Assembly (NCBI GenBank): GCA_951406725.2
Contig: OX597836.1
Coordinates: 11,842,001 to 11,906,000, forward strand
Direction: 5' to 3'
Length of the DNA stretch: 64,000 nucleotides
DNA from: Octopus vulgaris
Taxonomy: Eukaryota
How positions within the stretch are numbered: the stretch's first letter is position 1; every line of letters starts with the position of its first letter. The position numbers and the translations under genes were made by a program. The notes beneath the pieces are model-generated. The model did no database searches, was not told the DNA's origin, and was given only the letters and a program-made list of their open reading frames with translations. Below, in pieces: positions 2,905-33,082 of the stretch.

Positions 2905-3544
2905 GACTGTATTCTTCCTTGTTAACAATTAACACGGAAAAAATAGAAAAATAGTTCCCAGGGTAGCAAAAAATCACACAAGTAAAGAGGTCGTAACTCC
3001 TTGTTTTTAAAGTTAGAAACTTCGGGTTTACGAGGAATTTTTTGCATAATATATAAATAAATAAATGGAGTTTAACGCAGGTATAATTCAAATACTTTTA
3101 CTTCCGACACATGTTTCGAAGATATCACTGATATTATTCCAAAGGAATAAATGGTGTAAAACAATGTAATCTTCTTTTCAGGGAAGTGAAGAAATAAAAC
3201 TCGTCAATAAGACATTTTAACAGAAAATGATAGATATGTATAGTGATTTACTGAACGCTATTAATATTGTTTGAAAAAACGTTATATGATATAACGTCAG
3301 AAGTAGCCTATAGAATGAGGAGGGATATTTTTTTAGTGAATATTAAATATAAAAAGAAAATTAATGTTTAAATTATATATAATGATAGAGATTACTTATA
3401 TGGACTAAAGGTGTGTTTTTGCCAATGTTTACATCGGTATGCACGCTCTATAACCGTGTTTACTAGGGGATTTTTAGAAAAAATAATGAAAAATATTTCA
3501 GAATTACAGAGAAGACAGAATTCCTTGCCTTTGTGGTTTATCAT
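2905..3544 (-). mobile_element. Penelope-like element 3' fragment (ORF C-terminus plus pseudo-LTR with hammerhead)
   Basis: Minus 3544-3392 reads MINHKGKEFCLLCNSEIFFIIFSKNPLVNTVIERAYRCKHWQKHTFSPYK*, a CxxC-E...N...C(K/R)H pattern I recognise from PLE C-termini; hammerhead motif 200 bp downstream; abuts (TA)n. Confidence 0.6.
3100..3187 (-). ncRNA. Type I hammerhead ribozyme-like motif (core CUGAAAA, G8A)
   Basis: ACTTCC-CTGAAAA-GAAGAT[long loop]ATCTTC-GAAA-C-ATGT-G-TC-GGAAGT; stems I and II pair; palindromic stem III loop; GUC cleavage triplet. Confidence 0.7.
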
Positions 3545-3904
3545 TGATTTCTACAAATGGGCGACCGTTTTCCCACAAGGAACGCATCATCTTTCAAAAG
3601 GTATTGATTCTAATCCTGCAGGGTGTCCAGACAATCTCCTCACAAGAGTAGAAAGCTACTCAAGTGGGGGAGCCAGTTTAGTCACTAACCACTTCACCGT
3701 GGAACAGGCAGTACTAGTTTAACTGGTACCAGTAGCAGGTCTCGTCAGCCTGTGATGAGATCCCTGACCTGACCTAGAGTTGAGCACTCGGATCAATATA
3801 ATCGACTAGACTAGCCCCTCCCCAAAAATTTCGGGTCTTGATTTTTTTATTAGCCACAAGGGCCCAAATAGAGTGGGACAAACAAGGACACCACAGAGGG
3901 GACA

Positions 3905-4312
3905 GCGGCAAGCTGGCAGAAACATTAGCACGCCGGGCGAAATGCTTAACGGTATTTCGTCTGCTGCTACGTTCTGAGTTCAAATTCCGCCGAGGTCGAC
4001 TTTGCCTTTCATCCTTTCGGGGTCGATAAATTAAGTACCAGTTACGCACTGGGGTCGATGTAATCGACTTAATCCGTTTGTTTGTCCTTGTTTGTCCTCT
4101 CTGTGTTTAGCCCCTTGTGGGTAGTAAAGAAATAGGTATTTCGTCTGCCGCTACGTTCTGAGTTCAAATTCCGCCGAGGTCGACTTTGCCTTTCATCCTT
4201 TCGGGGTCGATAAATTAAGTACCAGTTACGCACTGGGGTCGATGTAATCGACTTAATCCGTTTGTTTGTCCTTGTTTGTCCTCTCTGTGTTTAGCCCCTT
4301 GTGGGTAGTAAA
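3905..4312 (+). mobile_element. SINE family B with 184-bp internal tandem duplication
   Basis: tRNA-like head GGCAAGCTGGCAGAAACATTAGC...GAGTTCAAATTCCGCC; core GTCGACTTTGCCTTTCATCCTTTCGGGGTCGATAAATTAAGTACCAG; unit repeats at 3951 and 4135. Confidence 0.9.
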
Positions 4313-4753
4313 AAAAAAAGTACGAATATGATGAGATGATTATATAACAATGGGGTTATGAATGGCTGCCTGCGCCCCTCATCACATGCATTACCATTAA
4401 TCTTTTTAAACTGTCCGTTTTTATCATGCATTTACACAATCAATTATCATATACCATTACAATCATTTGAACCGCTATACACGCCCTCTAAAACTGTTCT
4501 TCCATTTTTCAATATTATTAAACATAACATAAAACACTTCCTCTTTCTTTTTTTCCTTTTTTCTTCCTTTTACTTTTTTCTTTTCTCTTTTCTTTTTCCT
4601 GTCAATTTAACATATTTACTTTTTAGTAATGTTTCATTAGTGGTTCAATTTCTACTAAATCCACTACTGGTGAAACGATTATTAATTCATTTAATCAATT
4701 CTTTATTGCCTGACACAATGTATCTAGGATTACATTGCCATCTAAGTGTGTTT

Positions 4754-5174
4754 GGATCTTTTCGGTTTGAACGGCAGTTTTTAACAGAATTTCTAGGTAA
4801 CTAAAAAATTTTAAACTTCGTATACTGGTAGAATGTGTTTATAAGACATCTTTTTCTCTTGGCTTTATTGAGAAAATTTTATAGTTTGTAAGATATTTGT
4901 TGTTGTTTTTTTTTTCTTCAATTTCTGCAATTTCAACCAATCTCTGACGTCCATTGAAGTAAACAACATTCTGTGCCATATGAATATGTCCCTCGTTTAA
5001 GAAACAGATTGGGCTTATTTACATTTGTGAAGAAAAAAGATATCCTTCCCCCACCCCTAACTCTAACCCTAAAATAGATTGAAATGCAATAGATCGATAC
5101 TAGGGTCATAATTATGGGTGACGATTTCATATGACACCGCTAGAAAAAAACTGCCGTTCAAACCGGAAAGATCC
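4754..5174. mobile_element. MITE with ~28-bp TIRs and 8-bp TSD (Merlin-like by GG termini)
   Basis: TIR GGATCTTTTCGGTTTGAACGGCAGTTTT / AAAACTGCCGTTCAAACCGGAAAGATCC; TSD GTGTGTTT on both sides; second copy at 26128-26554. Confidence 0.85.
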
Positions 5175-30475: not shown

Positions 30476-30555
30476 CCCCCCCCCCCCCCCCCCCCCCCCC
30501 CCCCCCCCCCCCCCCCCCCCCCCCCCCCCCCCCCCCCCCCCCCCCCCCCCCCCCC
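30476..30555. repeat. 80-nt poly(C) homopolymer
   Basis: Direct count. Confidence 0.95.
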
Positions 30556-30654
30556 TCCGATTTCAAACCTGCAAGTGATAATTTAGTTATTTCCACCTTA
30601 AATTATATAAAAAGGATAATTTAGTTTTCATTTAAAAAAATGTTAAATGACTTG

Positions 30655-32190
30655 CTAGTAGTAGTTGTGGTGGTGGTGGTGGTGGTGGTGGTGGTGGTGG
30701 TGGTGGTTTTGAAGTTAGTAATGATCGTGGTAGTGGCGACAGGTTTTAATGATGGCGGCGGCTGCATAGGCGGTGGTGGTGGTGGTGGTGGTAGTGCTGG
30801 TAGTGGTGGTGGTGGTGGTGGTGGTGGTGGTGGTGGTGGTAGTAGTGCTGGTAGTGGTAGTGGTTGTGGTGGTGGTGGTGGTGGTGGTGGTGGTAGTAGT
30901 AGTGCTGGTAGTGGTGGTGGTGGTGGTGGTGGTGGTGGTGGTGGTGGTGGTGGTGGTGGTGGTGGCGGTGGTTGGTGTGTTGGTGGTGTTGGTGGTGTTG
31001 GTGGTGGTGGTGGTGGTGGTTGTGGTGGTGGTGGTGGTGGTGGTGGTGGTGGTGGTGGTGGTGGTGGTGGTGGTGGTAGTGGTGGTGGTGGTGGTGGTGG
31101 TGGTGGTGGTAGTAGTAGTGCTGGTAGTGGTGGTGGTGGTGGTGGTGGTGGTGGTGGCGGTGGTTGGTGTTGGTGGTGTTGGTGGTGTTGGTGGTGGTGA
31201 TGGTGGTGGTTGTGGTTGTGGTGGTGGTTGTGGTGGTGGTGGTGGTGGTGGTGGTGGTGGTGGTGGTGATGGTGGTGGTAGTGGTGATAGTGGTGGTGGT
31301 GGTGGTAGTGGTGGTGGTGGTGGTGGTGGTGGTGGTGGTGGTGGTGGCGGTGGTGTTATTACTAGCAATCGGTTTAGAGACAGAGATAGTTGCATTATTG
31401 CCAAGGTAGTTATGTGATTATACCGTTGTAATTTTTGCTGTTGTTTAGCCCCAGGTAAGCCTCCATTGCGAAGATGTATACCCAGAGTCATTCCAGCGGC
31501 AACCAATCATCTTTTGTTGTTTTTTGGGGTTTTTTTGTTTCTTGTTTTTTTTTGGGCTATGAAATGGGAACCCAAGAAGTTATTTTGGCTACTATTTCTA
31601 GGATGTGGAAGGACTACACAGGAGAACTTTGCCGTTGGCTGGTGGGTATTGTCCGTCGGGTTAGGAACAGGGAAGAAGGAGGTGGCGCTGGTGGTGCGGG
31701 TGATGGCGATCGTGGTGGTGGTGGTGGTGGTGGTGGTACTGATGATGGCGATGGTGATCGTGTTAGTGGTGGCGGTGGCAGTCGCGGCGGCAGCGGTGGT
31801 AGTGGTGGTGGTGGTACTGCTGTAGGTGGTGGTGCTGGTGACGTTGGTACTGATGATCACGATGGCGATGGTGGGGGTGGTGGGGGAATAGCGGATGATG
31901 GTGATGATGGTGATGATGGTGATGATGATGATGGTGGTGATGATAGTGGTGGCAGTGGTGGTGGTGGTGGTGGTATTGGTGGTATTTGTAGTGGTGGTGG
32001 TGGTGGTGGTGGTGGTGGTGGTGGTGGTGGTGGTTGTGATGGTGGTGCTGATGATCACGATGGCGATGGTGGTGGGGGTGGGGGGATTGCGGTCACAGCA
32101 ACAGTAATGATGATGGTGATGATGATGGTGATGATGATGGTGGTGGTGGTGGTGGTGGTGGTGGTGGTGGTGGTGGTGTTGGTGGCGGCG
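30655..32190. repeat. (GGT)n-rich low-complexity region with a complex island at ~31355-31680
   Basis: Direct observation; source of poly-G/V/T/P pseudo-ORFs. Confidence 0.9.
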
Positions 32191-32900
32191 TGGTTTGGAG
32201 GGGGGGATAGTATTCATCAATGTCTAATATAACATTTTAATTAAAATTGAGGAAAGGTTATCGGACTAGCAAGGCTAATGAAACCGACAGCAATTGCAGA
32301 GAAAGCAACTGCACACACACGCATACACACACAAACATACACACACACACACACACACGCACACTGCACATTGTACACCACCACTGCATACTACCCCCTA
32401 CACATCTGGGTAGCATTCACCCTTATCATGTTAAGTAATATCACCAATGAAGCACATGCTTCCCGATTGCTATCAACGGCGAACAAATATTTACGTGTGC
32501 ATACACATTGACACATTCATAAGCGCACACATACACACACACACACACACACACACACACGCACATAGACACATATGTATTCATACACATGCAAGCAGAT
32601 CCGCATATTCAGTCCCACTAATGCGCACGCATTCGTACAGTCACGTGTGCAGATGCAGACGCATGCTCAAACACAACCTCAAACACACACACACATACAC
32701 ATACACACGCACGCACACACAGTCTCTCTCTCTCACACACACACACACACACATATACGCATATTCGAACAGAGAAACATATAAATATATATATATATAT
32801 TTATATTTATTATATCTATATATTTATATTTTATATATATGTATGTGTATATATATATATATATATATATATATATATATATATATATATATACACACAC

Positions 32901-33082
32901 AGGGGAGAATCCACAAGAAAACTAAAGATGAAGACAGGTGGTGTAGAAAACAAACAGATGCATTAGTATAACGCTCGGGAAACGAAAAAGTCTTTAACGT
33001 TTCGAGCTTACGCTCTTCCACAGAAAGAAACAAGGAGAGAAAATGAAGAATGTGTAGTAGCTAGCGATCTATCATGGCGAAG
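32901..33082 (-). mobile_element. Small (TA)n-embedded element with minimal hammerhead variant at 32992-33027 (core CUGUGGA)
   Basis: CTTT-CTGTGGA-A-GAGC-gtaa-GCTC-GAAA-CG-TT-AAAG; a truncated relative lies at ~17981-18045. Confidence 0.6.

Follow-up and report, generated by a model that had tools for sequence, protein, structure and literature searches.

Hammerhead ribozyme motifs beside (TA)n tracts in Octopus vulgaris probably mark stubs of coding Penelope-like elements and retrozyme-like units

Introduction

A 64,000-nt stretch of Octopus vulgaris DNA (assembly GCA_951406725.2, contig OX597836.1, positions 11,842,001 to 11,906,000; hereafter the window), with a GC content of 36.6% and 98 tracts of at least six TA units, carries type I hammerhead ribozyme motifs beside (TA)n tracts, and raises the question of what kind of element brought them there. 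A preliminary description counted about nine motifs in 30 kb and proposed a high-copy set of non-autonomous ribozyme-bearing retroelements mobilised by the enzymes of Penelope-like elements (PLEs). Our analyses point to ordinary PLE biology at high density. Very probably, truncated or folded-back 3' ends of coding PLEs carry five of the nine motifs, likely retrozymes devoid of an open reading frame (ORF) carry three, and a short element for which no parent was found carries one, the ribozymes being predicted dimer cutters. Statements on published work refer throughout to the parts of each source that were covered.

Hammerhead motifs in the window

Eight of the nine motifs proved to be complete minimal hammerheads of type I, located where they had originally been placed. 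A descriptor of the type I order, with stems I and II enclosing CUGANGA and GAAA..UH, recovered seven of the nine, with predicted cleavage sites (position H17 in hammerhead numbering) at 3106, 11685, 14352, 16846, 21179 and 32996 on the minus strand and, once two core changes were permitted, at 12180 on the plus strand; it also matched at 49476 on the plus strand. The motif at 18378, a decayed copy with three contiguous pairs in stem I, is missed by the descriptor and was read by eye (site 18412, plus strand). The motif at 9208 (site 9243, plus strand) had been called truncated, and it is indeed the 3' half of a ribozyme only and no hammerhead by itself: the CUGAAGA core is gone because the fold-back breakpoint falls within stem II. 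A tenth motif, an A9C variant at 23116-23159 on the plus strand (site 23154), had been overlooked. The reported stem III palindromes ACGCGT, AATATT, ACGT, ACCTAGGT and ACAGCTGT were confirmed, while the spans ACATGTGT and ACTTGGGT are palindromic only if G-U pairs are counted.

The descriptors were composed after the motifs had been seen, and chance was controlled by 40 dinucleotide shuffles of the whole window in 500-nt blocks. Seven matches in the window compare with a shuffle mean of 0.9 (maximum 4), and five matches at a strict setting with a mean of 0.275 (maximum 2), so that the rate is not reproduced by dinucleotide shuffling. In the region 3001-33100, six matches stand against a mean of 0.5, and none of 200 shuffles reached six. 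A second descriptor gave nine matches against 0.78 in shuffles, an excess that is overstated because this descriptor was tuned to the observed variants. No credible hammerhead was found at 33100-64000, in contrast to the ten of the first 33 kb, despite an equal density of TA tracts. Of the 487 rows of an Rfam scan, the 150 best contained no hammerhead and only microsatellite-driven miRNA models.

Three candidates, at 6998, 23793 and 49476, were not accepted, for want of either a stem I or support from a family; the match at 49476 looks like chance. On the minus strand at 23725-23800, CUGACGA and GAAACAUGUGUC occur without a stem I, and the post-core bases can pair with the cleavage triplet; this motif, with one further match among the loci collected, may be scrambled or due to chance.

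Probable stubs of coding Penelope-like elements

Each family was searched across the 2.8-Gb genome, and the 30 best loci were kept. The nine motifs fall into seven families (A to G), and every motif recurs within its repeat family at the same spot near the 3' end, about 100-380 nt from it. At least six unrelated families had been proposed; the number stands, while their unrelatedness may be qualified by B and G, whose sequences can be aligned in the part that surrounds the ribozyme. Longer copies of families B, C, D and F, the hosts of five motifs (3100, 9208, 12137, 21175 and 32992), run upstream into reverse transcriptase (RT) and/or GIY-YIG endonuclease frames, and we therefore read the window copies as truncated or folded-back ends of coding PLEs. 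With coding parents found, these four families are not retrozymes in the sense of self-closed units that have no coding parent.

In family D, whose copies are 99-100% identical, direct pairs of pseudo-long terminal repeats (pLTRs) about 5.6 kb apart enclose an RT and GIY-YIG frame in all four such loci fetched. In locus L221 the frame is 962 aa long and frameshifted late, whereas it is split in the other three loci; the CUGAAGA core is carried by 28 of the 30 copies. Judged by the motifs of its predicted protein (DKT, RWK-like, CxCx5C, CxxC and CxH, with no CCHH), the D parent fits the definition that PMC8557442 gives of the Hydra clade; Pfam gave zero families for the Hydra-type frames of L221 and L223. 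Longer copies of family C run upstream into a GIY-YIG frame that ends in CxxC and CxH, the only items of the Hydra-clade motif set that C matches, and 13 of 30 loci match the endonuclease of the D parent on the same strand; the coding part found for C comprises the endonuclease and a piece of the thumb-linker region only. The family core is CUGAAGA, the G8A change being private to the window copy. Family B has a fixed 3' end and variable 5' ends. A second search, made with the upstream segment, gave 30 loci, of which 8 have RT or endonuclease motifs upstream, both the RT and the GIY-YIG domain being represented. A DKG motif lies upstream in L045, and the B parent has a CCHH endonuclease and a zinc-finger linker that is Neptune-like when compared by eye. 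Loci from a search with the GIY-YIG family were rejected as parents: they are coding PLEs, none of them parental, and the window-family matches in them are neighbours or short interspersed nuclear elements (SINEs).

The parent of family F is nearly hidden, only 2 of the first 57 loci extending upstream at all. A pattern taken from these two has 508 matches in the genome, and in 5 of 30 upstream-pattern loci an endonuclease frame lies about 1.1 kb upstream; L354 carries 530 stop-free codons of RT and GIY-YIG, with a linker that resembles, by eye, the Nematis rows of the PMC8557442 supplement. Inverted pairs make up 38 of the 57 loci, and in 32 of these one arm is about 60 nt longer. Two arrangements that suggested a tandem F retrozyme were rejected. 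The "dimer" of L228 is a 100% local duplication that includes the flank, and the 426-nt tandem array of L226 (G000:C27:32596600-32599900), with about eight units composed of F and a SINE piece and with stem I broken, is a satellite that arose from a PLE stub.

The tenth window motif is a member of a sister family of F (L362-L391; window 22560-23281), which is very young, with dozens of copies 98-99% identical. Its 1312-aa frame, with a long Asn-rich N-terminal part and DKS for DKG, is 53% identical to F over 519 aa; its stem II is similar to that of F, and its core shows C3-G8 and A9C in all 52 copies from 30 of 30 loci. A third family, young and Neptune-like (L091-L095, e.g. G000:C17:42760500-42769500), has many intact RT and GIY-YIG frames of 781 aa, overlapped by an upstream frame of up to 479 aa without a clear Pfam match, and bears, in 3 of 5 loci, a hammerhead-like motif whose core is U3-A8 and whose stem I is weak. 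Further coding PLEs with U4C hammerheads occur at L097:2964-5980 and L099:3889, the former a textbook inverted pLTR, frame and pLTR between TA tracts, and the flanks of L001-L391 contain at least ten other hammerhead stem sets, three of them with U3-A8.

Closed units and a short element with no coding parent found

Families A (motifs 14345 and 18378) and E (motif 11679) are built differently. Their units of 352-357 and 597 nt have longest stop-free frames of 62 and 98 aa, respectively, and matches that cross the same end-to-start junction exceed one unit length in 15 of 30 loci for A and in 8 of 30 for E. This closure is the actual evidence for a retrozyme-like nature in both families. One A insertion (L011/L024) is a dimer in which both ribozymes are decayed, and none was seen for E in 30 loci; folded as circles, the units give z-scores of -2.9 (A) and -5.9 (E) against 30 shuffles. 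Among 30 loci each, A and E share no upstream sequence besides their own unit end or inverted arm, and PLE protein matches, present in a few of the loci, are out of line with the unit. A and E are likely ORF-less retrozyme-like units copied by PLE enzymes; a pLTR sister of either was not identified.

Family G is about 235 nt in its longest copies, with a fixed 3' end and clustered 5' ends. None of its 28 listed 5' flanks shares sequence beyond about 30 nt, and no coding parent was found in 30 loci. Contigs of four presumed RNA runs cover F and G sequence and are uninformative on level, strand and ends.

Core variants, covariation and predicted cleavage

The canonical core letters are found in A, C, D and E, whereas the other families carry variants. 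The core of F, GUGAACA, has G3 and C8 in place of C3 and G8, and among 30 of the 508 pattern matches chosen regardless of core, 26 are G3-C8 and none is C3-G8. In B, position 6 is U in 79 of 81 copies; position 7 is free (G 57, U 12, A 8, C 4; 24 of 81 differ), and the other seven core positions differ in 2-4 of 81 only. U4C is found in 37 of 40 copies of G, and A9C throughout the sister family of F. The 3-8 core pair is thus Watson-Crick in three states across families, C-G, U-A and G-C. Such a double change is hard to explain without selection for an active fold, which makes F and its sister a direct test pair.

Covariation is also seen in the stems, albeit in few independent events. Stem I of E shows double changes among 29 copies (T-A 21 and C-G 5; G-C 16 and A-T 9), and F differs from its sister in stem II as well as in the 3-8 pair; stem I is weak in D and in the 781-aa family. 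Nearest-neighbour energies favour the dimer by 10-19.5 kcal/mol for the 6-8-nt palindromes of C, E, F and A. The hammerheads would cut as dimers, and the G3-C8 form of F is predicted to be self-cutting. It is conceivable, if somewhat doubtful, that active C3-G8, U3-A8 and natural G3-C8 hammerheads coexist in this one genome, with G3-C8 fixed in F as a young, coding, Nematis-like family and C3-G8 kept by its sister, and that the A6U, U4C and A9C cores also cut with the element's own protein. If true, nature would here have mutated the hammerhead core in a systematic series from which selection on the tertiary 3-8 pair can be read, and a part of cleavage in the spread of PLEs in vivo would gain support, a role that is still open according to PMC8557442 and PMC11167929.

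Insertion beside (TA)n tracts

The proposed link to TA microsatellites is borne out as a bias of the 3' ends. A stretch of (TA)4 or longer lies within 15 nt of the 3' end in 10/30 (A), 19/30 (B), 18/30 (C), 24/30 (D), 21/30 (E) and 29/30 (G) loci, and in 14/27 and 13/30 loci of F, for which a count of 3/30 was replaced because the wrong reference had been used. Contact thus ranges from 33 to 97% of copies against a background of 6-8% (506 of 8400 flank positions; 8.2% in the window). Counts at the 5' end are not meaningful for C, D and G, for which the references are shorter than the elements. In D, the six exceptions are 5' pLTRs, after which the element continues with its own 5' region and not with TA, so that the tract is not part of the D element. 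That every host element touches a (TA)n tract holds in that all nine lie within about 15 nt of one at one end or more, although the window has 98 tracts of at least six TA units. Differing families often abut at one TA tract (e.g. window 11477-12310). Inverted copies occur in 4 of 30 C loci and 0 of 30 B loci.

The fold-backs and one-sided tails agree with PLE-style insertion, and the preliminary description was right to see many high-copy families of PLE-type minimal hammerheads. We propose that an RT-endonuclease protein would nick TA-rich DNA and begin copying close to the RNA's 3' end, and that copying would mostly halt or fold back within a few hundred bases. In the PLE studied in PMC11167929, the protein nicks AT-rich DNA and copying starts inside the RNA at the tail. 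With the ribozyme so near the copied end, stubs from early stops and fold-backs would retain it, and for this reason small ribozyme elements would seem to crowd the window. Where pLTRs or units stand in tandem, their two ribozymes may pair via the stem III palindrome and so cleave the precursor; in the case of A and E, cutting would yield unit-length, probably circular RNAs that are copied in trans, and copying that runs round the circle would give the longer-than-unit insertions.

Comparison with known systems

Elements of this kind are already described (PMC4209133, PMC8557442, PMC7229834, 10.64898/2026.07.22.740005), and the odd part is the family-wide core variants, G3-C8 in F and A6U in B. 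Thousands of minimal hammerheads on truncated metazoan PLEs, which cut weakly as dimers, were reported in PMC4209133. The octopus motifs share with them the CUGANGA core, the extra base after A9, the G10.1-C11.1 pair and the palindromic 15.2-16.2 span, as well as the presence of many families per genome, mostly as single motifs on truncated PLEs, and of inverted pairs 100-700 bp apart. They depart from them in that the core covariant there is U3-A8, whereas G3-C8 (F), A6U (B) and A9C (sister of F) are found here. A search of two supplement files of that paper did not turn up octopus. Natural U3-A8, A6C and U4C have been reported (PMC3088659), and in the literature searched G3-C8 appears only as a laboratory mutant (PMC11167929, PMC3884650). 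The same search returned no natural A6U hammerhead and no octopus hammerhead survey, a weak negative, as subscription papers were out of its scope. A 2026 paper on O. vulgaris repeats lists 31 recent Penelope-like families, and the word "ribozyme" does not occur in the main text as covered (PMC13282606).

An octopus PLE of the Hydra clade with a hammerhead and TA preference, Hydra-1_Obim, is known from PMC8557442. The D parent resembles that clade in RW(R), DKT, a divergent RT4, the CxCx5C linker, CxxC and CxH without CCHH, the hammerhead and the (TA)n ends, and C resembles it in the end of the endonuclease. However, D is 5.6 kb long, whereas published Hydra elements are mostly below 3 kb, and it has a long Asn-rich linker, a 3' untranslated region (UTR) of about 2 kb and clear pLTRs; its ribozyme also differs, with a stem II of about 100 nt. 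By eye, the B parent is like Neptune1_Nv (PMC8557442 Fig. S2) in its DKG, zinc-finger linker and CCHH endonuclease, and the F parent and its sister are like the Nematis rows of PMC8557442 in their short C-x3-C-x2-C-x6-C linker, although the sister is unlike these rows in its DKS and its 1312-aa frame. The tail pattern of F corresponds to the PLE "tail" of the same paper.

A and E resemble non-LTR retrozymes (PMC7229834) in being ORF-less and of low GC content (42% and 33%), with one type I hammerhead per unit, a head-to-tail junction and, for A, one dimer. They differ from them in consisting mostly of 1-1.4 units rather than long arrays, and the 597-nt unit of E exceeds the 170-400 nt given in PMC7229834 while falling within the 51-972 nt of 10.64898/2026.07.22.740005, where retrozymes are described as non-autonomous PLE derivatives.

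Alternative explanations

Chance matches in low-complexity DNA would be a negligible explanation. The descriptors do post-date the sight of the motifs, and the match at 49476 does look like chance, but shuffling never attained the six matches of the ribozyme-bearing region, and the recurrence of each motif at the same near-3' place in its family refutes it. The proposal that all families are non-autonomous ribozyme retroelements mobilised in trans is very unlikely, even though the window copies are short and, apart from about 47 codons in C, non-coding, A and E are closed ORF-less units, and the 5' ends of G are clustered with no longer shared flank. The RT and GIY-YIG frames of the longer copies refute it for B, C, D and F, and it stands for A and E. 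As to the tracts, they might have been made or expanded at insertion, by slippage on AT-rich ends, instead of being chosen as targets; A, E and F do end at AT-rich points running into the tract, and A contacts TA in only a third of its loci. We find this distinctly unlikely, given that the internal pLTRs of D (6/30) continue into element sequence with no TA, and that PMC8557442 lists a preference for TA among Hydra, Naiad and Neptune PLEs. Less readily dismissed, though still unlikely, is that in several families the hammerhead is vestigial, or a protein-binding or priming signal, kept as part of the copied 3' end. The family-wide A6U of B, A9C of the F sister and U4C of G, the weak stem I of D and the 781-aa family, and the dispensability of cleavage in vitro (PMC11167929) would all be explained in this way. 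What it leaves unexplained is a 3-8 pair kept Watson-Crick in three states between families, and a B core with position 7 free and its neighbours fixed; moreover, the G3-C8 double change (C3G/G8C) partly rescues cutting in an Anolis PLE, whose hammerhead cuts only with the protein present (PMC11167929).

Against our own account, of PLE stubs and likely retrozymes with hammerheads that would cut as dimers, several points must be set. Self-cleavage, circles and RNA ends are predicted only. The computed dimer is unfavoured for B and G (+1.9 to +3.1 kcal/mol), A6U and A9C are fixed family-wide in B and in the sister of F, and a change at position 6 leads to low activity (PMC3088659). In vitro, the Anolis PLE inserts without need of cleavage, and no reads end at the site (PMC11167929); eight of nine Xenopus retrozyme dimers were uncut (10.64898/2026.07.22.740005). 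The double changes in stem I of E are inherited by subfamilies and represent about two events. Position 3 of F is other than G in 135 matches, and C8 is kept in 94 of the 100 listed; such variants are decay after insertion and no covariation inside the family, and a C3-G8 subfamily of F was found neither among these 100 nor among the 30 upstream-pattern loci. The locus sets consist of best matches, among them the copy in the window itself and a few loci that overlap or are duplicates, and the clade names Hydra, Neptune and Nematis rest on motifs compared by eye rather than on a tree. That 30 loci each gave no parent for A, E and G is weak evidence, because the parent of F was nearly hidden too.

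The window is both a warning and a resource: most of the short repeats with ribozymes that such genomes contain are stubs left by coding elements and not independent retrozymes, and natural core variants stand here side by side, tied to identified parents that include D, whose copies are 99% identical.

Features of the window

The elements and hammerheads are collected in Table 1.

Table 1. Ribozyme-bearing elements and related stubs in the window
Feature	Position	Strand	Remarks
Family C, 3' end of a Hydra-type PLE, 5'-truncated	2904..3534	-	93% to L110 over 633 nt; endonuclease upstream on same strand in 13/30 loci
Family C, parts: last ~47 GIY-YIG codons (3534-3392), 3' UTR, hammerhead, then (TA)n	2904..3534	-	
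Hammerhead C	3100..3187	-	Long stem II; private G8A; predicted site 3106
Family D, inverted (fold-back) pLTR arm, ends at (TA)n	8962..9200	-	99% to L221 pLTR
Family D, direct pLTR arm of a very young 5.6-kb Hydra-type PLE	9200..9626	+	3' hammerhead half, site 9243
Family E, part of a 597-nt ORF-less end-to-start unit, between two (TA)n tracts	11477..11873	-	
Hammerhead E, canonical core	11679..11761	-	Predicted site 11685; stem I double changes among copies
Family F, inverted arm with decayed second hammerhead, ends at (TA)n	11943..12095	-	
Family F, direct arm, 3' end of a Nematis-like coding PLE, ~60-nt one-sided tail	12118..12310	+	
Hammerhead F, core GUGAACA (G3-C8)	12137..12187	+	Predicted site 12180
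Family A, partial unit, 3' end adjoins (TA)8	14179..14431	-	Hammerhead 14345-14391, predicted site 14352
Family G, short element	16742..16922	-	Hammerhead 16842-16876 with U4C, predicted site 16846; no parent found
Extra B-type 3' stub without ribozyme	17985..18035	-	
Family A, one 357-nt unit and start of a second (terminal direct repeat)	18218..18642	+	
Hammerhead A, decayed	~18376-18418	+	Site 18412
Family B, diverged subfamily, 3' end of a Neptune-type PLE	21086..21225	-	Hammerhead 21174-21211, A6U, predicted site 21179
Inverted arm of pLTR stub, Nematis-like sister family of F	22560..22662	-	
Direct arm of sister-family stub, split by ~400-nt SINE-like insertion	23085..23281	+	
Tenth hammerhead, sister family of F	23116-23159	+	C3-G8 with A9C, predicted site 23154
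Family B, 3' end of a Neptune-type PLE, between (TA)n tracts	32894..33082	-	Hammerhead 32991-33028, A6U, predicted site 32996

Besides these, the window contains an array of a 34-bp tandem repeat with about 20 copies at 24789-25467. Head-to-tail copies of 171-209-bp repeats lie at 3951-4316, 35619-36217 and 41843-42177; they are SINE-like, the SINE labels being, here and above, what we presume these repeats to be.

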